From Candidatus Latescibacterota bacterium (GTDB lineage: Bacteria > Latescibacterota > UBA2968 > UBA8231), in the NCBI GenBank assembly GCA_965197905.1, contig CBDAOB010000004.1, forward strand, positions 2,080,001 through 2,144,000: a DNA stretch of 64,000 bases. The letters run 5' to 3'. Shown piece after piece: positions 2,005-64,000 of the stretch. The position numbers were made by a program, and so were the translations under genes. How positions within the stretch are numbered: position 1 is the stretch's first letter; each line of letters opens with the position of its first letter. The notes beneath the pieces were generated by a model, which saw only the letters and a program-made list of their open reading frames with translations, searched no databases and had not been told where the DNA came from.

Positions 2005-4344
2005 ATGGTTAGCGATGCGCGTCACAATCCGGGCGGTAGAAAAGGATCGAGGGCGATCGGTGTCATCCTGCTCGCGCTTGGCATTTTTCTGGCCGTAAGC
2101 CTCTTATCCTATTCGCCGCAGGACTATCCGAATTCCAGCAATTCGCCAAACGACAGCACGAACTGGGCAGGATACACCGGAGCCTACTTCGCATTCGGGG
2201 CGTTCTTTGGAATCGGATACGCGGCCTATCTCCTTCCAGTACTTGCTCTGGTCTGGGGCTGGAACCGCCTATGTCAGAACTCGATCTCACACGCACTATA
2301 CCGCACGGGAACCCTTCTTAGTGTCTGCTTGCTTTTCTGCGTTGGAGCTGGACTGCCGCTCTATTCCTCATACACCGCGTTCGAACTCGGCGGCTGGCTC
2401 GGTACCTACTCAAGCGAAGTAGTGCTCATCCCCTACGCAGGTCGAATCGGATCAGCCATCCTGTTGGTGGCTCTGTCGATAGCGGCATTGATGTTGACTA
2501 CAGATGTGAATCTGCGGCCTGTTGCGAGAGCCGCAAGAGCCCTCTGGGCTTCGAAAAAGCTACATGTTCTGATGAATACGTTCATTGCATTGGGAAGAGT
2601 CCCGCACCTGTTGTGGTCGCGGGCAGGTTACTACCTGAAATATTTCCGATCAAACTCAGGCAACACAAAGCTCCGAATGCCCGATCCAAAAGAAACCTAC
2701 AGCAGTGTCGACAGTCTACATGACACAGACATCGATGGAAACCACCTAGTGTTTTCAACGGGAGAACAGGAAGCGCCTCCAGAGATCCGGCGTGATATAC
2801 CAATTACGGCGCCCCCCGTGCGAATGCCGTCTGGGGACAGCAAAACCCCCGGCCCCAATGTCAACTGGAAAAAGAGAACACAGTCGCCTCATTTCCGCAT
2901 GCCAATAGTCGGCGTGGTGATGGATACGGTACCCAACAATCCCGGAGAGCTCAGTAGGGAAGAGCTGCTTGAGAATGCCCGCGTTCTAGAGGAAGCCCTG
3001 AGCGACTTCGATGTAACCTGTAAGGTTGTTGAGGTGATTCCCGGACCCGTTGTCACCCGCTACGAATTGGAGCCAGCCTCCGGAGTTAAGGTCAATAGGA
3101 TTGTCACCCTTACAGACGATCTGGCGCGGGTTATGAGCGCGCGTGGCATACGCATCCAAGCACCCGTACCCGGCAAGTCTGTCGTTGGCATCGAAATTGC
3201 CAACCAGACCAACGAGGTCGTCTATTTGCGAGATATACTCGAATCCGAAGAGTTCAAGAAGGCGCCATCAAAGCTCACCATGGCCTTGGGTAAATCGATC
3301 ACCGGGGAATCATTTGTCGCAGATCTTGCTAAAATGCCCCACTTGCTAATTGCGGGTGCGACGGGCTCGGGGAAAAGCGTCTGCATCAACAGTTTGATCT
3401 CAAGTATCCTGTTTAAGGCAAGTCCGGAGGAGGTTCGCCTGCTGATGGTCGATCCCAAGGTCGTCGAACTGACGGTCTACAACGGGATCCCGCATCTACT
3501 CGTACCGGTAATCACTGAGCCACAGCGCGCTTCGGAGGCGTTACGGTGGACGGTTGCGGAGATGGAGGTTCGCTACCGGAAGCTTGCCGAGTTGGGGGTC
3601 CGCAACCTGGCGGATTACAACCGGAAGCTGCCGAAGGTCAACAAGGAGGACGAAAAAGCTGGAATCGAGCCTACGAATCCCCTCCCCTACATCGTTGTCA
3701 TCGTCGACGAGTTTTCTGATCTGATGTTGACGGCTCCAGCAGATGTCGAAACGTCCCTCATGAGCCTCGCCCAGAAATCACGTGCTGTCGGCATCCACAT
3801 CATTTTGGCCACCCAAAGGCCTTCCGTCAACGTAATCACGGGCGTCATCAAAGCTAATTTTCCATCGAGGATCGCATTCCAGGTGCCATCAAAAACCGAT
3901 TCGCGCACCATTCTCGACCTCAACGGGGCCGAACGTCTGTTGGGTAGGGGAGATATGCTCTTTCTCCCAGCTGGTCAGGGTGAACCGATCCGTGTTCACG
4001 GCGCCTACATATCCGGAGACGAAATCGAGCGTCTGGTGGAGTCCCTGCAGGATTCCGAATACGAAACCGAAGATGTTGCGGTCTTCTCAGCGCATGCGGA
4101 TATTAACGACTCGTCTGCCGACGACCGTGATGAGTTGTTCGATGAAGCGGTCCGGCTGACGGTTGAATCTGAGCAGGCTTCGACCTCGTACCTCCAACGA
4201 CGCATGAAGATCGGGTACTCGCGCGCGGCGCGCCTCATGGACGAACTCGAGGCCGCCGGAATTGTTGGTCCGGCCGAGGGCGCCAAGCCGCGGAAGATCT
4301 TCGTGACGGCAGAAGATCTGGAAGGGACTACCGCAAATCCGTGA
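2005..4344 (+). CDS. ftsK: DNA translocase FtsK
   Basis: 4TM N-domain, Walker A GATGSGKS, VVIVDEF, LATQRPS, gamma domain 'STSYLQRRMKIGYSRAARLMDELE'. Start moved to ATG 2005 behind GGAG. Confidence 0.97.
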   Translation: MVSDARHNPGGRKGSRAIGVILLALGIFLAVSLLSYSPQDYPNSSNSPNDSTNWAGYTGAYFAFGAFFGIGYAAYLLPVLALVWGWNRLCQNSISHALYRTGTLLSVCLLFCVGAGLPLYSSYTAFELGGWLGTYSSEVVLIPYAGRIGSAILLVALSIAALMLTTDVNLRPVARAARALWASKKLHVLMNTFIALGRVPHLLWSRAGYYLKYFRSNSGNTKLRMPDPKETYSSVDSLHDTDIDGNHLVFSTGEQEAPPEIRRDIPITAPPVRMPSGDSKTPGPNVNWKKRTQSPHFRMPIVGVVMDTVPNNPGELSREELLENARVLEEALSDFDVTCKVVEVIPGPVVTRYELEPASGVKVNRIVTLTDDLARVMSARGIRIQAPVPGKSVVGIEIANQTNEVVYLRDILESEEFKKAPSKLTMALGKSITGESFVADLAKMPHLLIAGATGSGKSVCINSLISSILFKASPEEVRLLMVDPKVVELTVYNGIPHLLVPVITEPQRASEALRWTVAEMEVRYRKLAELGVRNLADYNRKLPKVNKEDEKAGIEPTNPLPYIVVIVDEFSDLMLTAPADVETSLMSLAQKSRAVGIHIILATQRPSVNVITGVIKANFPSRIAFQVPSKTDSRTILDLNGAERLLGRGDMLFLPAGQGEPIRVHGAYISGDEIERLVESLQDSEYETEDVAVFSAHADINDSSADDRDELFDEAVRLTVESEQASTSYLQRRMKIGYSRAARLMDELEAAGIVGPAEGAKPRKIFVTAEDLEGTTANP

Positions 4345-5024
4345 TTGAAGTCGAAGGTTGGCGCTGGACAAGAGTCTGGTCACTTCTGCTGGTGCTCCTT
4401 GCCGAGGGTTCTTGGACACCGGCGTTCAGTGCGCGGAGCGGCGCCGAGATTCTCGCCGAGATCGAAAAGAGATTCGGCACCTACAAGACCTTCTCCGCCA
4501 GGTTTGAAAAGCAGTTCTATTGGGCGATTCTCGATGAAAAACACACGCGTCAGGGCCGCATTTACACCCGACATCCCAACCAGTTTCGAGTCGAGACGGA
4601 TGACGGCAACATGGTGTTGGCAGACGGGCAGACGATCTGGGCTTTCGTCAAGCAAAATGAACAGATAATCGCCAGTTCATACGATGGGGAATTGCGTACG
4701 CCGTGGGAGATACTCCTGGCCTACACGGCAAACTACCTCCCCGTCCAGGTGGAGGAGCTCAAATACGAGGGACGACCTGCCTTTGCCGTCAGCCTGAGGC
4801 CGCGACTGCAAAATTCTTCCATTAGCCAGCTGAAGATCTGGGTGAGCAAAAAAGATTGGTTTCTATTGAAGGTCAAACAAACAGAAACAAACAACGACGT
4901 GACGACTTATCTCCTCAAAGAGCACGAGCCCAACAAGAAACTGGACGAGGATCTGTTCGCATTCGATCCACCTGAAAACGTTGAGCTAATAGATCAGAGA
5001 AGATCTGCTTCGCCGGATCGATAA
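4341..5024 (+). CDS. lolA: Outer-membrane lipoprotein carrier LolA family protein
   Basis: 'FSARFEKQ...HPNQFRVE...LADGQTIW...FAFDPPENVELID'; conserved ftsK-lolA order. Confidence 0.85.
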   Translation: MIEVEGWRWTRVWSLLLVLLAEGSWTPAFSARSGAEILAEIEKRFGTYKTFSARFEKQFYWAILDEKHTRQGRIYTRHPNQFRVETDDGNMVLADGQTIWAFVKQNEQIIASSYDGELRTPWEILLAYTANYLPVQVEELKYEGRPAFAVSLRPRLQNSSISQLKIWVSKKDWFLLKVKQTETNNDVTTYLLKEHEPNKKLDEDLFAFDPPENVELIDQRRSASPDR

Positions 5025-5099: not shown

Positions 5100-6722
5100 A
5101 TGGTTACGACCGGCATCCTGTTGTCAGCGAGCAACCTCCATGCAGTCGCAACCGAGTTCTGGGTGTTGCTCGACAATAAACCAGGTCTAGATGGCGCCAG
5201 GATTTCATGGAATCGGAACCCGCTGCACCACGAAAATGAAGTTCTGAATCTTCCGTTGAATCCGGGTTACATAGCTGAAGTTGCCGCCACAGGTGCGAAG
5301 ATCCGCGTTTGTTCGCGGTGGTTCAACGCCGTAAGCGTCAGCGCCGATCAAGAAACCGCGTTGCGCATCGACAACCTGCCGTTCGTGCGGGGCCTGGAAC
5401 CTGTGCCAAAGGCGCGGAGAGTTCAATACGAACCCGGTATCGCGTCTGATACGTTTTCCAAACCGACGCAGGACGAGTACGGCCCCTCTCTTGCCCAACT
5501 GGCGCAGATCGGTGTGGTCGCGTTGCACGGCGAGGGTTATCGCGGGCAGGGAATCCGCATTGCGGTACTGGACAATGGATTCCATTACACCGAACATCAG
5601 GCATTCGAGCAAATGAGGATCGTCGAAGAGTTCGACTTTGTAAACAACGACGAAATCGTTTCAGATCAGGATAATCAGCCGACTACCGGTGACGAAACCG
5701 CGTCAAATCAGAATATTCACGGTGCCCAGGTCCTGTCCATTCTGGGAGGTTTCGACCCTGGACGTCTCGTCGGTGTTGCGCCGGAAGCGGAATATCTCTT
5801 GGCGAAAACCGAAGACAACGACAGCGAGTTGCCGATCGAGGAGGATTGGTGGATTGCAGGGGTCGAATGGGCAGACAGCCTTCAGGCCGATGTTATAAAC
5901 AGCTCCCTTGGGTACAACACATGGGAGGACGGAACGGGATACGAATACCAGGATCTCGACGGCATGACGGCAAGAACCACAGTGGCGGCTGAAATAGCGT
6001 CCCGCATGGGAATGGTACTGGTCGTTTCCGCCGGTAACGAAGGGGACAAACCGTGGACCTACGTCACGACCCCGGCAGACGCTGACGCTGCCCTCGCCGT
6101 CGGCGCCGTGGACGCCCGAAACCAAATCCTTGCCTTCAGCTCCCGCGGCCCGACAGCCGACGGTCGCATCAAGCCAGACCTGGTCGCCCCCGGCGGTGCG
6201 GTGCTGATGGCCGCAGTGCGAAACGGCAACTACGTGCGCAATCGTGGCACATCATTCGCCGCGCCTCTTGTTAGCGGCGTTTGCGCTCTGCTGCTCCAGA
6301 TAGAACCGTTGGATCCCGAGACGATGCGCCAACGGTTGCGTTCCACAGCCACCGACTTGGGGCCCGTCGGACCTGACACCTTGTACGGTTGGGGTCTGGT
6401 CAATGCTCTTGCCGCCATGGGGGTAGGAGTCCCCGACGTGAGCGCTTCGGATTCCCCCTACCCGAACCCGAACACGAGCGGAGTCGTCCATTTCCCGCTC
6501 CTATTGTCAACACCAGATGAGGTCTCGGTCCGCATCTTTGATATTGCCGGCGCAATTGTGGATCAGCTACCACCCCGGCCGTTTGCAGCCGGCGATTTCA
6601 GACGCCCCGAGCGTGCCTTGAGATGGACCGTTCCCCCTGGTTTGGGCAACGGAGTATACCAGTTCGTATTACAGACCACGTCGTTCACACGACACGGGAA
6701 GATCGCGCTCGTCCGCGATTAG
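5100..6722 (+). CDS. Secreted subtilisin-like S8 serine peptidase with C-terminal sorting-like domain
   Basis: Catalytic motifs AVLDNG, HGAQV and GTSFAAP; oxyanion SAGNEG; C-terminal 'PYPNP...VRIFDIAG...GVY'. Start uncertain (5058 TTG or 5100 ATG). Confidence 0.9.
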   Translation: MVTTGILLSASNLHAVATEFWVLLDNKPGLDGARISWNRNPLHHENEVLNLPLNPGYIAEVAATGAKIRVCSRWFNAVSVSADQETALRIDNLPFVRGLEPVPKARRVQYEPGIASDTFSKPTQDEYGPSLAQLAQIGVVALHGEGYRGQGIRIAVLDNGFHYTEHQAFEQMRIVEEFDFVNNDEIVSDQDNQPTTGDETASNQNIHGAQVLSILGGFDPGRLVGVAPEAEYLLAKTEDNDSELPIEEDWWIAGVEWADSLQADVINSSLGYNTWEDGTGYEYQDLDGMTARTTVAAEIASRMGMVLVVSAGNEGDKPWTYVTTPADADAALAVGAVDARNQILAFSSRGPTADGRIKPDLVAPGGAVLMAAVRNGNYVRNRGTSFAAPLVSGVCALLLQIEPLDPETMRQRLRSTATDLGPVGPDTLYGWGLVNALAAMGVGVPDVSASDSPYPNPNTSGVVHFPLLLSTPDEVSVRIFDIAGAIVDQLPPRPFAAGDFRRPERALRWTVPPGLGNGVYQFVLQTTSFTRHGKIALVRD

Positions 6723-9586: not shown

Positions 9587-10279
9587 ATGTGTTCGGGAAT
9601 GACTGCTTCACCTGCATTGCAGGCGAGAGGAATTCAGAAGGTGTTTCGGTCGGGAGACGAGGAGCTCGTCGTTCTCGAAGATGTGAATCTGGAGGTTTGT
9701 CGGGGAGAAGTATTGGCCATAACCGGGGCTTCGGGTGTGGGCAAGAGCACTTTGTTACATATCATGGGGACGCTGGAGCGTCCGTCAGGTGGTGAGCTGG
9801 AGATCGATGGTCAACGAGTCTTTGAGCTTACCGAAACGGAAACGGCCCAATTTCGCAACCGCCACATCGGCTTCGTATTTCAGTTTCACCACCTTTTGCC
9901 GGAATTCACGGCCCTTGAAAACGTTCTTCTTCCCGGAATGATTGCTGGAATCGATGTAGCCGAGCTGAGAAAGTACGCCACCGAACTGCTCGGTACCGTG
10001 GGGCTGCAGGATCGCATGGAGCATCGTCCGGGCGAGCTTTCGGGGGGCGAGTGTCAGCGAGTTGCCGTTGCCAGGGCACTGGCCATGAAACCAAAGATCG
10101 TACTGGCCGATGAACCATCGGGCAACCTGGATACTGCCACTAGCGCGACGCTGCACGGAATGATTAAAGATCTCGCGAAAGCAGAAAATCAGACGTTTGT
10201 GATAATGACCCACGACCAGTCGCTTGCTTGCAGCGCAGATCGCGTCGGAAAACTCGAATATCGTTCGCTGCTTCTGTGA
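9587..10279 (+). CDS. lolD: Lipoprotein-releasing ABC transporter ATPase LolD
   Basis: GASGVGKS, 'GFVFQFHHLLPEFTALENV', LSGGE, ADEP. Confidence 0.9.
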   Translation: MCSGMTASPALQARGIQKVFRSGDEELVVLEDVNLEVCRGEVLAITGASGVGKSTLLHIMGTLERPSGGELEIDGQRVFELTETETAQFRNRHIGFVFQFHHLLPEFTALENVLLPGMIAGIDVAELRKYATELLGTVGLQDRMEHRPGELSGGECQRVAVARALAMKPKIVLADEPSGNLDTATSATLHGMIKDLAKAENQTFVIMTHDQSLACSADRVGKLEYRSLLL

Positions 10280-56387: not shown

Positions 56388-58616
56388 ATGTACTATGCAC
56401 ATTCCCTCAAAGGTCAGTCGAGGGAATACTGGCAGCCGCTCCGGGAGCACCTGCTCAAGGTCAAAGACGAGGCAGCGGCGCGGGGGGCCAAGTTTGGAAC
56501 CGACAAAGCTGCGGGATTGGCTGGGCTTTTGCATGATCTTGGCAAGTACACAGAAGCGTTCCAGAAGCATATAGATGGCTCGTCGATCCAAGTTGATCAC
56601 TCCACGGCCGGTGCCCAACAGGTTTGCGTTCTTGACACGGCAACGCCAAACGACCGGGGCATGGCGCAGCTTATCGCTTATACCATCGCCGGGCACCACG
56701 CTGGCTTGCCGGATATGCAAAGCGGGACCGGCTCACTCAATTCGCTTGATGAGCGGCTAAAAAAGACACTCAACCCGCTTGACTCGACTTGGGAGAAGGA
56801 AATTCGGCCAGTCGCTACTGGTCTTTGGCCCGAAGGGTTCACACTAGGGAAAGACCGTGAGACGACGGCGTTTCAGCTCTCCTTCCTGACGCGGATGATC
56901 TTCTCGTGCCTCGTTGACGCAGATTTCTGCGACACCGAGGGCTTTTACGCTGATGCAAAAGGCGAGACCGTTGACCGCGACTGGCCGACGCTCCCAGAAA
57001 TAGTTGATCCGCTACGCGATAGGCTCAACAACCACTTCGCCGGACTTGCCAGCGAGGGCAAGGTCAATCGTCTGCGCCGCGAGATTCTGGAGCATGTTCG
57101 CGCTCAAGCCGATTGCTCTCCGGGCCTGTTCTCGCTCAACGTACCGACCGGCGGCGGCAAGACGCTGACTTCCCTCGCCTTCGCCCTCGACCATGCCAAA
57201 GCACACGGGCTTGAGCGCATCGTCTATGCCATTCCCTTTACTTCAGTGATTGACCAGACCGCAGGGATTTTCCTCGATGTGCTGGGTGAGGGCGTCGTCC
57301 TTGAACACCATTCGGCGATTGACGAAACCAAGTTCACAAAGCGGGAGGGAGCCGATAAACTGCGGCTCGCCATGGAGGACTGGGCGGCCCCCATCGTCGC
57401 GACCACCAACGTCCAGCTCTTTGAAAGCCTGTTTTCCCATCGCCCGTCGCGGTGCCGCAAGTTGCACAATTTGGCTCGTGCGGTCATTGTCCTCGACGAA
57501 GCGCAGACCATTCCCCTACACGTGCTCCGACCGGCGGTCGCCGCCCTTGATGAACTGGCTCGCAACTATGGCTCTTCAATAGTACTATGCACCGCGACCC
57601 AACCGGCACTCAAGGCACCTGAATTAAAAGGGGGCTTTGTCCAAGTCCGCGAACTCGCGCCTGACCCGCCGCGCCTGCACCAGAAGCTCGTCCGTGTCAG
57701 AATCTCCAACGGGGGCGCACTCAGCGACGAGAGCCTATGCAATGCCCTCACACAAACAGCGCAAGGCATGGTCGTTGTCAACAGCCGGAGACACGCCTTA
57801 GACCTCTTCCGGCAAGCCTGTGAAGCTGACATCGACGGCGTCGTGCATCTGAGTACGCGACAATACGCAGCGCATCGTCGCCGCATTCTTGCGGATGTTC
57901 ACCAGCGGTTAAAGGAAGGCAGGCCGTGTCGATTGGTTGCGACTTCGTTGGTCGAGGCGGGCGTTGATTTGGATTTTCCGAGGGTCTGGCGGGCCGAGGC
58001 GGGGCTTGATTCGATTGCCCAAGCTGCCGGGCGGTGCAATAGGGAGGGACGACACGATGTTGCAGACAGCATTGTCACCGTGTTCCAATCAGAGGAACAT
58101 CCAAGTCCGCCTGAACTACGCCAGCTTGCCGGAGATATGCAGCGCATCATCAGTCGTCATGATGACTTGCTCTCGCCGGAGGCCATGGAGGATTATTTCC
58201 AAGAGGTGTATTGGCGCAAGGGGGAGGGGCTCGGTGATGATGTTCTGCAAAAATTCACGGCTGATAGGAACGGAACATCGTTCTCCTTCCGCGAAGTTGG
58301 AGAGACGTTCCGCCTGATCCAGAGCGGACTTGAGCCAGTGATCGTCGCCCGAGAAGAGGAAGCGGGTAAGGCGGTGCACGATCTCGCTTATGCTGAACGG
58401 CTTGGCGGCGTGGCGCGGCGGCTCCAGCCTTATATTGTGCAAGTTCACCCTCGCTTCCGGGCGCAACTTGTCACAAATAATCACGTATGTTTTGCGGCAC
58501 AGGAACGCTTCGGCGACCAGTTCGCCGTTCTCTTCACTCAAAGCCTCTATCAAGAAGAGGTCGGCCTCCTTTGGGAGGACGCGGATGCGCTCGGCGATGA
58601 GGTGATGCTTATATAA
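56388..58616 (+). CDS. cas3: CRISPR-associated HD nuclease/helicase Cas3 (type I-C)
   Basis: 'YAHS...LREHL', 'LHDLGK', 'LVDADF', 'PTGGGKT', 'DEAQ', 'QAAGRCNREG'. Confidence 0.97.
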   Translation: MYYAHSLKGQSREYWQPLREHLLKVKDEAAARGAKFGTDKAAGLAGLLHDLGKYTEAFQKHIDGSSIQVDHSTAGAQQVCVLDTATPNDRGMAQLIAYTIAGHHAGLPDMQSGTGSLNSLDERLKKTLNPLDSTWEKEIRPVATGLWPEGFTLGKDRETTAFQLSFLTRMIFSCLVDADFCDTEGFYADAKGETVDRDWPTLPEIVDPLRDRLNNHFAGLASEGKVNRLRREILEHVRAQADCSPGLFSLNVPTGGGKTLTSLAFALDHAKAHGLERIVYAIPFTSVIDQTAGIFLDVLGEGVVLEHHSAIDETKFTKREGADKLRLAMEDWAAPIVATTNVQLFESLFSHRPSRCRKLHNLARAVIVLDEAQTIPLHVLRPAVAALDELARNYGSSIVLCTATQPALKAPELKGGFVQVRELAPDPPRLHQKLVRVRISNGGALSDESLCNALTQTAQGMVVVNSRRHALDLFRQACEADIDGVVHLSTRQYAAHRRRILADVHQRLKEGRPCRLVATSLVEAGVDLDFPRVWRAEAGLDSIAQAAGRCNREGRHDVADSIVTVFQSEEHPSPPELRQLAGDMQRIISRHDDLLSPEAMEDYFQEVYWRKGEGLGDDVLQKFTADRNGTSFSFREVGETFRLIQSGLEPVIVAREEEAGKAVHDLAYAERLGGVARRLQPYIVQVHPRFRAQLVTNNHVCFAAQERFGDQFAVLFTQSLYQEEVGLLWEDADALGDEVMLI

Positions 58617-58624
58617 TGGTAGGG

Positions 58625-58653
58625 GTGTCCCTCGTGCGGAGGGTATTGAATAC
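58625..58653 (+). repeat. Solitary degenerate type I-C CRISPR repeat between cas3 and cas5
   Basis: GTGTCCCTCGTGCGGAGGGTATTGAATAC: hairpin CCCTC/GAGGG around GTGCG plus an ATTGAA(T)AC tail. Shares the CGTGCGG core with the repeat at 62099. Confidence 0.5.
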
Positions 58654-59341: not shown

Positions 59342-61158
59342 GCATTCTGGCTTCTCTTGAGCGTGCCTATCATCGGCTCGCAACAGAGAACAAAGTGCCG
59401 CCGATTGGCTACTCCAATGAGCGGATCGACTATTGCGTCGTCCTGAAGGCCGATGGCCAGCCCGATGGTCCGCCTGTGGACCTACGAGACCACTCAGGGA
59501 AGAAACCTGTAGCCCCGCGACACTCAGTTCCGCGACCAGAGAAGCGGGCGGGTAAAACGCTTTTGCCGAGCTTCCTCTGGGACAAGGTATCGTATTCGCT
59601 GGGTGCCATGGAAGACTTGGAAGGCGAGGACCCACACACCAGAGAGCGTCGTGCCGATCGGGTGGCGAAGCAGTACGAGGCTTTTCAGGACCGGCACCTC
59701 GTTGTCCTGCAAAATGAAAGCGACGCAGGGCTTGTGGCCTGCCGTTGTTTCTTGAAATGGTGGAAGCCAGAGTACTTCGACGCGCATGGCTGGCCAGACG
59801 AAATGAAGGGGGCCAATGTGGTGTTCCGGTTGGAGGGAGAGCAAAACTTCATACACGACCGCGAGGCCTCACGTCAACTATGGGCTTCGCAGATGAATCA
59901 GGATCACGAACCGGGCCAAGCCGTTTGCTTGGTGACCGGAGAGAGATCCCCTATCGCTCGATTGCATCCCTCGATCAAGGGGGTGCGTGGCGCACAGTCT
60001 GCCGGCGCATCCATCGTCTCTTTCAATCTCGACGCCTTTGAGTCTTATGGGCACAAACAGGGCGATAATGCACCCGTAAGCGAGGACGCTGCCGCCGCCT
60101 ATACGACTGTGCTCAACCACTTTCTCCGTACCAACGAAAACAAAGTCCAACTCGGCGACACCTCGACTGTATTTTGGGCCGATGGCTCGAATGCGGAAAC
60201 AGTGGCGCAATGCGAGGCACTATTTTCCTTCTTGGCCAATGACACAGGCGACGCGATAAGCGAGCAGGCCATCAAGTCCATTCTCGAAAAAATGGCAAGG
60301 GGCCGTCCCATGGAGGAAATCCGCCCGGATTTGCCCCAAGGTGTGCGCTTCTACGTGCTGGGGTTGGCCCCCAATGCAGCGCGTATTTCGATTCGCTTCT
60401 GGCTGGAGGACGACTTTGCGACGTTTGCAGAGCATATCCTCTGGCACTATCGGGATATGCGCCTCGACCCGCGGCCGCGGGTCGAGGCGCCAAGCGTTCG
60501 GCGCTGCCTACTTGAGACCGCCACGACGAAGGTAAAAAACCGATACGAACATATCCCTTCCCAACTCGCTGGGGATATGCTACGCGCGATCCTGACAGGT
60601 CGCCGTTATCCGCAGACGTTGTTTTCCACGATTCTCATGCGACTGCGGTCGGATAAGGCCATAACGGCCCTTCGCGTAGCCTTACTCAAAGCCGTGATCT
60701 GCCGAAATAGGCGCAAGGATGACCATTTAACAAAGGAGAATTTTATCGTGTCCCTCAATCCCACAAACGCCGACTCCGGCTATTTGCTAGGCCGGCTATT
60801 TGCCTGCTTTGAGTACGCGCAAACGCAAGCCCTCGGTGGCAAGGTCAACGCCACGATATGCGATAAGTACTATGGGGCGGCTTCGGCGACGCCGCGGTCT
60901 GTATTTCCCATCCTGCAACGCAACGCCATGAACCACCTGTCGCGTCTGCGGAAAGACCGGCCTGCAACGCATCGCTATATCGACAACACAATCGCCCAGA
61001 TCTATGGGTGCGCCACGCCCGATGAGCTGTTCGTGGCGACGCTGACGATGGAACGTCAGGCCCTCTTCGCCATCGGCTACTACCACCAGAAAAACGATTT
61101 TTACACCAAGTCCGCCCCCCGTGAGGAGGGCAAAGAAGAAAAGGAGAACGAAGAATGA
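59338..61158 (+). CDS. cas8c: Cas8c/Csd1 large subunit
   Basis: 'CLVTGE...IARLHPSIKGV', 'IVSFN..AFESYG', 'LGLAPNAARISIRFW', 'YLLGRLFA', 'GYYHQ'. Confidence 0.96.
   Translation: MSILASLERAYHRLATENKVPPIGYSNERIDYCVVLKADGQPDGPPVDLRDHSGKKPVAPRHSVPRPEKRAGKTLLPSFLWDKVSYSLGAMEDLEGEDPHTRERRADRVAKQYEAFQDRHLVVLQNESDAGLVACRCFLKWWKPEYFDAHGWPDEMKGANVVFRLEGEQNFIHDREASRQLWASQMNQDHEPGQAVCLVTGERSPIARLHPSIKGVRGAQSAGASIVSFNLDAFESYGHKQGDNAPVSEDAAAAYTTVLNHFLRTNENKVQLGDTSTVFWADGSNAETVAQCEALFSFLANDTGDAISEQAIKSILEKMARGRPMEEIRPDLPQGVRFYVLGLAPNAARISIRFWLEDDFATFAEHILWHYRDMRLDPRPRVEAPSVRRCLLETATTKVKNRYEHIPSQLAGDMLRAILTGRRYPQTLFSTILMRLRSDKAITALRVALLKAVICRNRRKDDHLTKENFIVSLNPTNADSGYLLGRLFACFEYAQTQALGGKVNATICDKYYGAASATPRSVFPILQRNAMNHLSRLRKDRPATHRYIDNTIAQIYGCATPDELFVATLTMERQALFAIGYYHQKNDFYTKSAPREEGKEEKENEE
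60748..61158 (+). CDS. cas11: Cas11c small subunit, internally translated in frame within cas8c (136 aa)
   Basis: AAGGAG at 60733-60738, 9 nt before an in-frame GTG; product begins MSLNPTNADSGYLLGRLFA. Confidence 0.8.
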   Translation: MSLNPTNADSGYLLGRLFACFEYAQTQALGGKVNATICDKYYGAASATPRSVFPILQRNAMNHLSRLRKDRPATHRYIDNTIAQIYGCATPDELFVATLTMERQALFAIGYYHQKNDFYTKSAPREEGKEEKENEE

Positions 61159-62099
61159 CCGCACTCAATCATCGCTACGACTTCGTCTATCTGTTCGACG
61201 TCAACAACGGCAACCCCAACGGCGATCCGGACGCAGGCAACCTCCCGCGCCTCGACCCGGAAACGAACCAAGGATTGGTCACGGATGTCTGCCTCAAGCG
61301 CAAGGTGCGCAATTTCGTTGAACTGGCTAAGGGCGACGAGTCCGGCTACGCGATCTACGTCCAGGAAGGTGCTCTGCTCAACGAGCAACACCGGAAGGCG
61401 TATCGGGTTGTGCGCCCCAACGACAAGAAGGTCGAGAGCAGCAAGAAACTAAGCCCCCAAAGCGACGAGGAGATGGATAAACTGCGCGGCTTCATGTGCG
61501 ACAATTTCTTTGATGTACGCACCTTCGGTGCGGTAATGAGTACCGGCATCAACTGCGGCCAGGTCCGCGGGCCGGTACAGATGACCTTTGCGCGGTCCAT
61601 TGATCAGATCGTGCCGCTCGAAGTGTCCATTACGCGCATGGCAGCGACCAACGAAAACGAAAAGAAGGAGCGCGAGGATGCCAGCGATGAAAACGCGGGC
61701 GACGAGCGGACCGAGCACCGCACCATGGGTCGCAAACATATTGTGCCCTACGGACTGTATCGGGCGCACGGCTTTGTCTCCGCCAAGCTCGCCGAACGCA
61801 CGGGCTTTTCGCCGGACGATCTCGACGTCCTCTGGAATGCCTTGACGCAGATGTTCGAACATGACCACTCGGCCGCCCGCGGCGAAATGGTTGCCCGTCG
61901 GCTCATTGCCTTTAAGCACGCCAGTGCCTTGGGCAACGCGCCCGCGCATAGGCTCTTCGAGCGGGTGAGTGTGCAGCGTGCAGAAGCGGATGGTAGCGAA
62001 GGCATCCTGCCGCCTGCCCGCAGCTTTGCTGACTATCGTGTAGAGCTCGACTTGGACGATATGCCGGCAAATGTCGAGGTCGTCGAGCCGATCACATAG
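61155..62099 (+). CDS. cas7: Cas7c/Csd2 backbone subunit
   Basis: 'NGNPNGDPDAGNLPR', 'TDVCLKRKVRN', 'FDVRTFGAVM', 'RGPVQ'. Confidence 0.97.
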   Translation: MTALNHRYDFVYLFDVNNGNPNGDPDAGNLPRLDPETNQGLVTDVCLKRKVRNFVELAKGDESGYAIYVQEGALLNEQHRKAYRVVRPNDKKVESSKKLSPQSDEEMDKLRGFMCDNFFDVRTFGAVMSTGINCGQVRGPVQMTFARSIDQIVPLEVSITRMAATNENEKKEREDASDENAGDERTEHRTMGRKHIVPYGLYRAHGFVSAKLAERTGFSPDDLDVLWNALTQMFEHDHSAARGEMVARRLIAFKHASALGNAPAHRLFERVSVQRAEADGSEGILPPARSFADYRVELDLDDMPANVEVVEPIT

Positions 62100-62202
62100 A
62101 CGCCTCCGTGCGGGGTACGGAATGAAACAAACGGAGCGGAGATGCCGATGCGTGAAGCGCAGTTCGGGCGGTCACCCCCAGTGCAGGGGCATGGATCGGA
62201 CC
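62099..62202 (+). CRISPR. Degenerate CRISPR mini-array (repeat - 42 nt - repeat) between cas7 and the cas4 core
   Basis: R1 62099-62128 GACGCCTCCGTGCGGGGTACGGAATGAAAC; R2 62171-62202 GTCACCCCCAGTGCAGGGGCATGGATCGGACC. Both align to the recalled I-C repeat pattern GTCGCCCCCCGTGCGGGGGCGTGGATTGAAAC (R2 25/32 ungapped). Confidence 0.65.
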
Positions 62203-62846
62203 ATGGAATGGAGCCGGTACCCGTGTCGGCACTGCAACATGCGGTGTACTGTATGAGGCAATGTGCTCTGATCCACTTGGAACGGCTTTGGGAGGAAAAT
62301 CGATTTACCGCTGAAGGTCGGGTACTGCATCAAGTCATTGACGAAGCCGGGCGTCGGCGCAAGGCAGGTGTACGCCAAGTAATGTCGCTCCCGATCTACA
62401 GCATCCGGCTCAATCTTACAGGCCTCGCCGATATGGTCGAGTTCCGCGAAAGCCGGACGGGTACGACCCCGTTCCCGGTCGAGTTCAAACGCGGCAAGGC
62501 CAAAGTACATCGCGCCGACGAGGTGCAACTCTGCGCCCAGGCACTGTGCCTTGAGGAAATGACCGGTACAGAAGTGCCAATGGGGGCCTTTTACTACGGC
62601 CAAACCAAACGGCGGAAGGAAGTGTCTTTTGACGCCGAACTCCGCACCCTGACCGAGACGACAGTTGTGCAGGTAGCCACGCTCTTTGCGGGAGGCCGCA
62701 CACCGCCAGCCGAATACGAAGCGGCCAAATGCCGTGGCTGTTCGCTGCTCGACCAGTGTCGCCCGAAGGCGATGGAGCGTTCGGTTATAGCTTGGCGGAC
62801 GCGTACCCTAGCATCGCACCTTGCCGAGCCTGGAGAATACCCATGA
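62142..62846 (+). CDS. cas4: Cas4 exonuclease
   Basis: 'SALQHAVYCMRQCALIH', 'GLADMVE', 'PVEFKRG', 'QLCAQ', 'C..CSL...C.P'. Start at 62142, 62148 or 62208. Confidence 0.96.
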   Translation: MPMREAQFGRSPPVQGHGSDHGMEPVPVSALQHAVYCMRQCALIHLERLWEENRFTAEGRVLHQVIDEAGRRRKAGVRQVMSLPIYSIRLNLTGLADMVEFRESRTGTTPFPVEFKRGKAKVHRADEVQLCAQALCLEEMTGTEVPMGAFYYGQTKRRKEVSFDAELRTLTETTVVQVATLFAGGRTPPAEYEAAKCRGCSLLDQCRPKAMERSVIAWRTRTLASHLAEPGEYP

Positions 62847-63877
62847 GGCGGTTGCTCAATACGCTCTATGTTACTACGCCTGAAACACGTCTGACCAAAG
62901 ACGGCGAGAATCTGGTCGCGGAAGTAGAGGACGAGGAACGTGCGCGGGTGCCGCTCCACATGCTGGGATCTGTGGTGGTGTTCGGCGGCATCTATATATC
63001 TCCACCCCTGATCCAGGCCTGTGCTGCCGGCGGCATCGTCTTAGTGCTCCTGAGTCGATTCGGCCGATTTCAAGCCCGAGTCGAGGGACCGGTCTCTGGC
63101 AACGTGCTGCTGCGTCGCGCACAATATAGGGCCAGCGACGACCCAGAAGAGATCGTCCGCAGCATTCTCGTCGGCAAGATCGCCAATCAGAGAAGCGTCC
63201 TGCAAAGAGCCCAGCGAGATTACGGTGGGGAGCTTGAGCCTTCTGGCCGCGAAGCCATGTCCGCCGCGACGAATCGCCTTCGGCAGATTGTGCAACGTAT
63301 CAGCGACGGCCACGACAGTATCGATAGGCTACGCGGTTTTGAAGGCGAGGCCGCACGGCTCTATTTCTCCATCTTTGGCCACCTGATCCGCGTACCCGAC
63401 CCAGAGATGGCATTCGCCGTCCGCAGCCGCCGGCCGCCGCTGGACCCGATGAATGCCCTGCTCTCGTTTCTCTATACCCTTCTCGTCCACGATTGCAGAT
63501 CGGCCGCCGAAAGCGTGGGCTTGGATCCGGCTGTAGGCTTCTTTCATAGAGATCGGCCCGGCCGTCCGAGTCTCGCGCTAGATCTTATGGAAGAGCTGCG
63601 GCCAGTCTTGGCTGACCGGCTCGCGCTATCGCTAGTCAATCGTCGGCAAGTTCGCGCTAAAGACTTCCAAGTCCGAGAAGGCGGCAGCGTCTCAATGAGC
63701 GACGCCGCTCGCACGACGGTTCTCAGTGCTTGGCAGGAGCGAAAGCGCGTAGAGCGCCGTCACCCTTTTTTGGGGGAGCAGGCACCGCTCGGCTTGGTTC
63801 CATATCTCCAGGCGCAGTTGCTGGCTCGGCATCTTCGAGGCGACTTAGATGCCCACCCGCCGTGGTTATGGAAATAA
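62843..63877 (+). CDS. cas1: Cas1 (type I-C)
   Basis: 'MRRLLNTLYVTT', 'LRGFEGEAA..YF', 'RRPP.DP.NALLSFLY', 'LALDLMEELR'. ATG 62843 overlaps the cas4 stop. Confidence 0.97.
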   Translation: MRRLLNTLYVTTPETRLTKDGENLVAEVEDEERARVPLHMLGSVVVFGGIYISPPLIQACAAGGIVLVLLSRFGRFQARVEGPVSGNVLLRRAQYRASDDPEEIVRSILVGKIANQRSVLQRAQRDYGGELEPSGREAMSAATNRLRQIVQRISDGHDSIDRLRGFEGEAARLYFSIFGHLIRVPDPEMAFAVRSRRPPLDPMNALLSFLYTLLVHDCRSAAESVGLDPAVGFFHRDRPGRPSLALDLMEELRPVLADRLALSLVNRRQVRAKDFQVREGGSVSMSDAARTTVLSAWQERKRVERRHPFLGEQAPLGLVPYLQAQLLARHLRGDLDAHPPWLWK

Positions 63878-63935
63878 GGCTATTCAACATGCCCTTCTGA
63901 ATGATAGTCGCTCTCTCACAAGGAAATAACCGACC

Positions 63936-64000
63936 ATGATGGTTCTCGTTACGTATGATGTCTCGACGACATCCGATGGCGGCGCACGTCGGTTACGACG
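63936..64000 (+). CDS. cas2: Cas2, 3'-truncated by window edge
   Basis: AAGGA RBS; MMVLVTYDVSTTSDGGARRLR. Confidence 0.92.
   Translation, partial: MMVLVTYDVSTTSDGGARRLR

Follow-up and report, generated by a model that had tools for sequence, protein, structure and literature searches.

We found, between cas7c and cas4 of a type I-C CRISPR operon of a Latescibacterota bacterium, two worn copies of the CRISPR repeat (R1 and R2) flanking a 42-nt interval, and we consider this repeat-interval-repeat unit to be probably a relic that likely yields no guide RNA. Instead, it likely now provides cas4 with its ribosome-binding site and start codon and with a short N-terminal extension. We favor this reading because the repeats drift at the synonymous rate and because the interval has no detectable target. 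The complete operon occupies the end of the window (the whole stretch of 64,000 nucleotides that was analyzed; Table 1), where the products of cas3, cas5c, cas8c, cas7c, cas4 and cas1c pass the NCBIfam cut-offs and cas2 was identified by sequence reading alone. The real array, with 26 exact copies of a 32-nt repeat, begins 413 bases beyond the window end. A sequence-only reading had described the unit as a cryptic mini-array, and the coordinates, lengths and reading frame that it gave stand, including the start of R1 on the last base of the cas7c stop codon. Elsewhere in the operon, the worn copy at the cas3-cas5 junction lies 28 nt ahead of the likely cas5 start (58682) and has a clearer homologue in locus L011 (score 32), and the possible half copy at the cas1-cas2 junction matches a sister repeat at 12/13 positions (p 0.04 against shuffles, a weak result). 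A repeat-like 5′ half (score 28) is also seen at 61113-61131, in the last cas8c codons 23 nt ahead of the cas7 start, and recurs in L012 and L013. Elsewhere in the genome are another array, built of 17 copies of an 18-mer unrelated to the cognate repeat (C4 12329-13700), and a further periodic repeat at C5 about 1191580.

Table 1. Features of the window and related repeat-derived elements in other loci of the phylum (L numbers denote loci and precede their own coordinates)
Feature	Location	Strand	Remarks
cas3	56388-58616		type I-C operon
Worn sense repeat copy, cas3-cas5 junction	58624..58653	+	local score 26, under the threshold of 28
cas7c (Csd2)	61155..62099	+	TIGR02589, 381 bits (cut-off 182)
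R1, worn repeat, 30 nt	62099..62128	+	24/30 to the cognate repeat
42-nt interval	62129..62170	+	A-rich stretch, two GGAG, two ATG, opening codons of the likely Cas4 extension
R2, worn repeat, 32 nt	62171..62202	+	25/32; in the cas4 reading frame (within SPPVQGHGSDH)
cas4 with likely N-terminal extension of 20-22 residues	62142..62846	+	TIGR00372 from residue 27
cas1c	62843..63877	+	TIGR03640; overlaps the cas4 stop
Possible 5′ half of an older repeat copy, cas1-cas2 junction	63907..63919	+	weak
cas2 start	63936..64000	+	sequence reading; runs beyond the window
CreR-like unit	L014 about 4414-4570; L015 about 4372-4545; L016 about 4355-4520; L013 about 3177-3305		
Lineage-B copies, cas7-cas4 junction	L154 7831-7863; L157 7925-7954; L158 7948-7977; L160 7550-7575; L155		
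Lineage-B copies before cas1	L161 9205-9237; L154 8584-8632; L157 8599-8630		
Lineage-B copies before cas2	L158; L159		
Lineage-B copy before cas5	L159		

The kinship of R1 and R2 with the cognate repeat is evident from comparison with the real array, a check proposed in the sequence-only reading, which had scored R2 at 25/32 against a type I-C repeat pattern. R2 reaches the same 25/32, ungapped, against the array repeat itself and is the best non-array site in the 6.69-Mb genome (both strands, array masked), with the next-best sites at 23/32 (two sites) and none at 24. R1 matches a two-deletion form of the array repeat at 24/30, likewise the best non-array match (next best 22/30, one site), a score that is slightly flattered because that form was picked after R1 was known. 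Judged by these comparisons, two such matches 42 nt apart are not a chance occurrence, and the alignments show R1 and R2 to descend from the I-C repeat family. The interval is at the upper end of the spacer range of the array (32-43 nt for 24 of its 25 intervals), and the unit has the makeup of a mini-array, in which a single interval of spacer size lies between two relatives of the cognate repeat; with at least 16 bases matching that repeat, within the cas locus and outside the array, it also belongs to the class of standalone repeat-like elements. R1 lacks one base in each stem arm, has A and C as the equivalents of G21 and U22, and keeps 9 of the 11 handle bases in the window (C22 and one further handle change being the differences), while R2 keeps U22-G23-G24, has A21 and is changed at the 3′ end of the handle. 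Position 27 of R2 is C, as in 34/56 repeats outside the phylum, versus T in 12/12 of the arrays examined from the closest relatives (lineage A, see below), which fits an old copy that failed to track its array.

DNA searches recovered the cas7-cas4 junction at high identity in 12 of 168 genomes of the phylum, our own included, and these, together with one metagenome contig, constitute the 13 loci of lineage A, which form one clade in the Cas7 and Cas4 trees nested among mostly alphaproteobacterial systems; the outgroup junctions have a median length of 39 nt (68 loci) and are as a rule without repeats. Parsimony rates were computed on nine of the 13 loci, with L014, L018, L019 and L091 excluded for internal indels and an insertion in L017 set aside. 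R1 accumulates 1.17 changes/site (95% interval 0.90-1.48) and R2 1.16 (0.78-1.59). For comparison, cas7 shows 1.12 at its four-fold sites and 0.26 at codon positions 1+2, and cas4 shows 1.10 and 0.15, respectively; both repeats thus drift at the synonymous rate. Within R1, the stem arms change at 1.25 and the 11-nt handle at 0.82 changes/site; R2 changes at 0.86 in codon positions 1+2 and 1.73 in position 3, and the interval at 0.64, its first 8 nt at 0.62 (interval 0.25-1.12). The R1 handle shows no difference among the window, L011 and L013 (four-fold divergence 0.11-0.16), which is weak evidence because few changes are expected over that distance. The R1 hairpin has been deleted at least twice and is missing from 4/13 loci (L014, L018, L019 and L091), although three of these four possess arrays with 25-72 repeats. 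The conservation in related junctions that had been proposed as a check was thus not borne out, and the joint preservation of repeat and seed among relatives that marks CreR-type elements is not seen in the R1/R2 unit.

Several further rearrangements were observed at and around this junction. L017 has a 36-nt insertion with a further repeat copy inside the old R1 (5885-5916), and at the same place the basal loci L018, L019 and L091 display an apparent repeat that has lost its hairpin. In 8/13 loci, the cas7 stop and cas4 share a frame that is free of further stops (window 62097-62208); read-through there would fuse Cas7 to Cas4, and the spacing is probably inherited and was lost in the other five. 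The cas3 and cas8 genes of L013 are interrupted by insertions and the cas7 of L122 is matched in two frames, both loci having long arrays.

The translation start signals of cas4 lie within the interval, as the sequence-only reading had noted: GGAG occurs at 62133-62136 and 62138-62141, followed by ATGs at 62142 and 62148 in frame with the ATG at 62208, where the conserved core of cas4 starts. All 13 loci have an in-frame upstream ATG within the interval, and in three of them, forming one clade (L018, L019 and L091), the core ATG is replaced by ACG or ACA, so that the interval ATG is the only ATG start and cas4 must begin there. Shine-Dalgarno pairing is stronger at the upstream ATGs (−5.8 and −6.6 kcal/mol) than at the core ATG (−3.9 kcal/mol); the host anti-Shine-Dalgarno sequence is standard and in use (33% of 2279 proxy starts vs 7% in the control), and the conserved bases of the interval are those of the Shine-Dalgarno sequence, retained where R1 is deleted. 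The extension shows a coding pattern of change, with 0.68 changes/site at codon positions 1+2 vs 1.23 at position 3 (one-sided p 0.047), and both deletions inside it remove whole codons (−18, −12), whereas 4/5 indels upstream of the ATG do not (by-eye count). The absence of stops is weak evidence, its chance expectation being 0.10, and the +1 frame is likewise stop-free over the last 48 nt in 12/13 loci. We infer that translation begins at ATG 62142 or 62148 and passes through R2, which is probably translated as part of Cas4; the earlier proposal that R2 is read as an N-terminal extension (SPPVQGHGSDH) accordingly appears probable.

The Cas5c (Cas5d) substrate in pre-crRNA is a repeat with a 7-bp stem, a 5-nt loop and an 11-nt handle, cut after position 21, with the stem base and the three bases past the cut (U22-G23-G24) being recognized (PMC8524198, PMC3973291); species differ in tolerance, and some Cas5c enzymes are described as accepting changes at G21 and G23 (PMC8524198). 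R1 and R2 come from the same repeat family, but unlike that substrate R1 has A21 and C22, R2 has A21, and neither is predicted to fold canonically in the window: the pairing probability of the canonical stem is 0.00-0.01 for R1 and 0.02-0.03 for R2, versus 0.93-1.0 for the array repeat in context. The stem of R1 has no more than five pairs, and its preferred fold is a shifted hairpin in which the first handle bases are paired. The CCCC/GGGG stem that had been noticed in R2 is present, but it retains only 4/7 canonical pairs at the low pairing probability just given. The closing pair is C-A in both repeats, followed by UGG in R2 and CGG in R1, and both fail the Cas5c-site test (a stem closed at 21, then U22-G23-G24), a test of sequence only for an enzyme whose tolerance differs between species. 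On this evidence the repeats are apparently no longer Cas5c substrates in this genome. R1 folds canonically in L011 (0.93-0.99) and, taken alone, in L013 (0.74), so a weak Cas5c site is possible there. Rfam gave no match to the unit at E up to 1, and no promoter- or terminator-like site bounds it. One metatranscriptome contig from relatives (61598-62156, differing at 41 of 560 positions) runs across the predicted cut in R1, and the next of the listed pieces begins at 62399; because assembled contigs show neither RNA ends nor levels, and DNA may be present in the sample, these data speak neither for nor against processing. The second half of the original idea, in which Cas5c cuts or binds the cas mRNA at the cas4 start, is thus unlikely in this window, judged from its sequence, and possible elsewhere in the group.

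The first half of that idea, the release of a functional crRNA-like guide, fares worse. It would make the unit a gene of the CreR/CreA type, in which Cas5c frees a 74-nt RNA (62118-62191) that guides Cascade to repress a promoter; CreR is described as keeping the 5′ handle in its first repeat and pairing with a PAM-flanked site at a cas promoter, and I-C examples of CreR-like units are reported in the same source (10.1101/2023.03.10.532045). The repeat-42 nt-repeat layout inside a cas operon and the fairly conserved first 8 nt of the interval (0.62 changes/site) agree with such a gene. We searched for targets as TTC-flanked sites with 14 scored positions, every sixth base being left free and mismatches being allowed, in comparison with shuffles. 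The best such site in its own locus scores 8/14 (p 0.98), and the intervals of 12 loci reach 7-11/14 with no convincing TTC-PAM target, the sole nominal match being 11/14 behind TTC inside cas4 of L019 (p 0.024, 1 of 12 tests). Genome-wide, two sites score 12/14, versus 0-13 (median 1) for 20 shuffled guides, and no target position is common to the 13 loci. The earlier remark that the cas3 promoter has no TTC-PAM seed target holds under strict and relaxed rules alike; among the four nearest relatives, the sequence ahead of cas3 is not shared, save about 100 bases in one. The wider search for seed targets that had been suggested came out negative too, with nothing above shuffles in the genome, no protospacer in 50,697 phage records (best E 0.7) or 72,556 plasmid records (best E 0.04, 32 nt at 87.5%), no phage or plasmid record covering 80% of the query, and zero IMG/VR matches to a 24-base degenerate pattern of the interval. 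Together with the drift of the repeats, the altered handles and stem base, the lack of a bounding promoter or terminator, and conserved bases that are those of the Shine-Dalgarno sequence and survive where R1 is deleted, these results make a guide-producing gene very improbable.

That such genes can be detected in this clade is indicated by a CreR-like unit that we uncovered at the cas3-cas5 junction of four relatives, consisting of a near-intact repeat, a spacer of ~28 nt and a repeat-derived hairpin with a T run, followed by a promoter of the TTGACA-17-TATATT/TATGTA type ahead of cas5; at this junction the window has only the worn repeat. The spacer of the unit matches the −10 region of the cas5 promoter behind TTC at 12-13/14 positions in L014, L015 and L016 (p 0.002 each), and at its position 1 the spacer and the target change together in L014; the unit of L013, a locus without the −10 target stretch, fails the target test. 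In L014-L016 the CreR-like unit keeps 10-11/11 handle bases and a near-identical seed, whereas R1 keeps 5-7/11 and its seed varies. As this positive control passes in three of the four relatives, the test can detect CreR-like elements in the clade, and the R1/R2 unit is not one: its first repeat lacks an intact 5′ handle and processing site (A21, C22 and one further handle change) and its interval has no seed match to a PAM-flanked cas or cargo promoter site. A separate two-repeat mini-array is found about 100 nt upstream of cas3 in L016 (1927-2020).

As for the origin of the unit, we propose that a single repeat would first have landed ahead of the original start of cas4, much as lone copies are seen at the starts of several cas genes in the phylum. 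A second copy may then have arisen upstream. Either a spacer was integrated into the stray repeat, or another repeat was inserted so that the two enclosed the native leader of cas4; the hairpins would then have eroded and the start signals been retained. We infer this order of events. Spacer integration into the stray repeat would be an ectopic activity of Cas1-Cas2. On the native-leader idea, the 108 nt of the junction minus both repeats leave 47 nt, near the 39-nt median of the 68 outgroup junctions, and of the four sister loci by Cas7, two come first and third among the 68 in similarity, with a weak overall correlation (p 0.08, 0.14). We also considered the interval as a copy of the cas4 region encoding F-K-R-G-K, which has TTC in front, and did not adopt this reading, the match being 15/34 in the window (p 0.31); the three basal loci gave 17-18/34 (p 0.03-0.09; 13 tests, 74 segments). 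A cas4-derived spacer is thereby a weaker candidate still than spacer integration or leader bracketing.

A different account of the origin, compatible with the unit being a relic, holds that array repeats acted as short homologies that were copied into cas junctions during swaps of cas modules between co-occurring systems, leaving recombination scars that mark such exchange and have no RNA role. Along the operon, the identity shared with the window changes abruptly in L013 (66-99%) and L011 (73-98%), the same system occurs in several genera and families of the phylum, some copies match the repeat of their own array best (L014 cas2; L154 and L157 cas1), and L124 has worn repeats right behind cas7 with no cas4 or cas1 match in the stretch examined. 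However, identity was compared in 300-nt bins only, so that its steps can be tied to the repeat copies no more than tentatively, and the alphaproteobacterial relatives rarely carry copies (3/55), so that a host-specific cause would be needed; we hold this account to be tentative and rather doubtful.

What plain decay leaves unexplained, and thus counts against the relic reading, is the fresh repeat inserted into R1 of L017 and the recurrence of copies at gene starts. We scanned 145-nt windows at six cas gene starts against the repeat of each locus (score threshold 28), with L012 and L095 dropped as near-duplicates, L091 dropped for its short contig, and only loci with an array in view scored. 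Sense copies within 130 nt of a cas gene start are found in 6/11 loci of lineage A and in 6/8 loci of lineage B, a distant group of type I-C systems within the phylum whose repeat is 37 nt long and whose Cas7 is 44-47% identical, amounting to 12/19 loci of the phylum versus 3/55 loci outside it. Within the phylum, sense windows outnumber antisense ones 19 to 1, and interior control windows gave 0/684 hits (12/1942 outside); a Fisher p for this enrichment overstates it, since kin are not independent. By eye, there were at least six separate gains, at cas3-5, cas7-4 and cas1-2 with refreshes in L014 and L017 in lineage A, and at cas4, cas1 and cas2 in lineage B. In L014, a near-intact repeat of its own array (9694-9725) follows right after the cas1 stop, 12 nt before the cas2 ATG, and replaces the older junction. 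Outside the phylum, copies are scattered: of the 55 loci, L074, L072 and L039 have them at the cas7-cas4 junction (one in sense, two in antisense orientation), and L064 has one sense copy before cas5.

In lineage B, the handle often directly abuts the ATG, and L154, L157, L158 and L160 show at most one difference from each other in the 12 nt that precede the ATG of cas4 (four-fold divergence 0.28-0.54), the hairpin being retained although its arms change. With 2-3 handle changes in L155, conservation beyond the synonymous divergence applies to 4/5 lineage-B loci, although the copies were located by a 7-nt handle anchor, which biases them towards intact handles. This conservation could reflect Cas5c recognition or simply a good ribosome-binding site, and by their sequence the lineage-B copies are the best candidates for live Cas5c sites. 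An in-frame second worn repeat was looked for in lineage-B cas4 and gave a score of 26, under the threshold of 28, in 1/8 loci, too little for us to claim a two-layer parallel in that lineage. The recurrence and conservation of copies at gene starts underlie the alternative that R1 itself still acts, at reduced strength, as a Cas5c site within the cas mRNA, such sites being repeatedly gained and lost in the phylum, at which Cas5c in excess over pre-crRNA would bind or cut just upstream of the cas4 ribosome-binding site and uncouple or damp cas4-cas1-cas2. The abundance and sense orientation of the copies at cas starts, the conserved lineage-B handle and hairpin, and the reading by Cas5c of the stem base and the three bases past the cut (PMC8524198, PMC3973291) favor it; nevertheless, R1 in the window is without G21, U22 and the canonical fold, drifts at the synonymous rate and is deleted in 4/13 loci, L155 departs from the conserved handle, and the anchor favored intact handles. 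Moreover, GGA and a run rich in A are part of the handle, and selection for ribosome binding could by itself maintain both the handle and the sense orientation. We therefore regard a live site at R1 as unlikely.

The unit resembles the degenerate mini-CRISPRs of the CreR/CreA kind in having two degenerate repeats and one interval between type I cas genes (10.1101/2023.03.10.532045), but differs in an eroding R1 handle (9/11), the lack of a found target and an interval that is the translation start of the next gene. It is also like the standalone mini-arrays of PMC10120712, partly degraded repeat pairs 20-60 bp apart in a cas locus; according to a table of that paper, a repeat-like sequence occurs in 34% and a mini-array in 7% of I-C loci, and its text describes dynamic gain and loss. 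The elements presented there lie in long intergenic regions near cas3, cas8 or cas6 with an upstream repeat close to the array repeat, whereas here one repeat is within a reading frame and copies sit on start codons, and ‘cas4’ is absent from its main text. PMC12102369, as far as its accessible part goes, concerns Cas6 competition and not mRNA sites. Descriptively, and on its sequence features, the R1/R2 unit is a standalone mini-array of the kind in PMC10120712 that lacks three sequence hallmarks of CreR as given in these sources. In the main texts of the open-access literature, our searches found neither the reuse of a repeat as start signal and coding sequence, nor a concentration of copies on start codons, nor an action of Cas5c on cas mRNA through such copies.

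As a relic, the unit illustrates on a small scale how DNA of CRISPR repeats can be turned into a translation start and into coding sequence, and it cautions against labeling a repeat-interval-repeat unit of a cas operon as CreR until its interval has been tested for a target. The wider pattern would be weightier, as known control by mini-arrays has Cascade acting at promoters, whereas with repeats placed on start codons the processing enzyme Cas5c could itself act, and do so on the cas mRNA. We raise the possibility, itself speculative and more doubtful than probable, that the I-C systems of this phylum keep planting their own repeat on the start signals of cas4, cas1, cas2 and cas5, where Cas5c would read the copies in the cas mRNA as an RNA-level feedback on the adaptation genes, with sites being born and dying and the old ones being absorbed as ribosome-binding sites or N-terminal peptide. 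If this is true, the R1/R2 unit would preserve two layers of that cycle in fossil form, and the sister lineage would hold sites that are still live. The clade offers a natural test set for these ideas, combining a CreR-like unit with a co-varying target, the conserved lineage-B handles, and decayed copies as controls.
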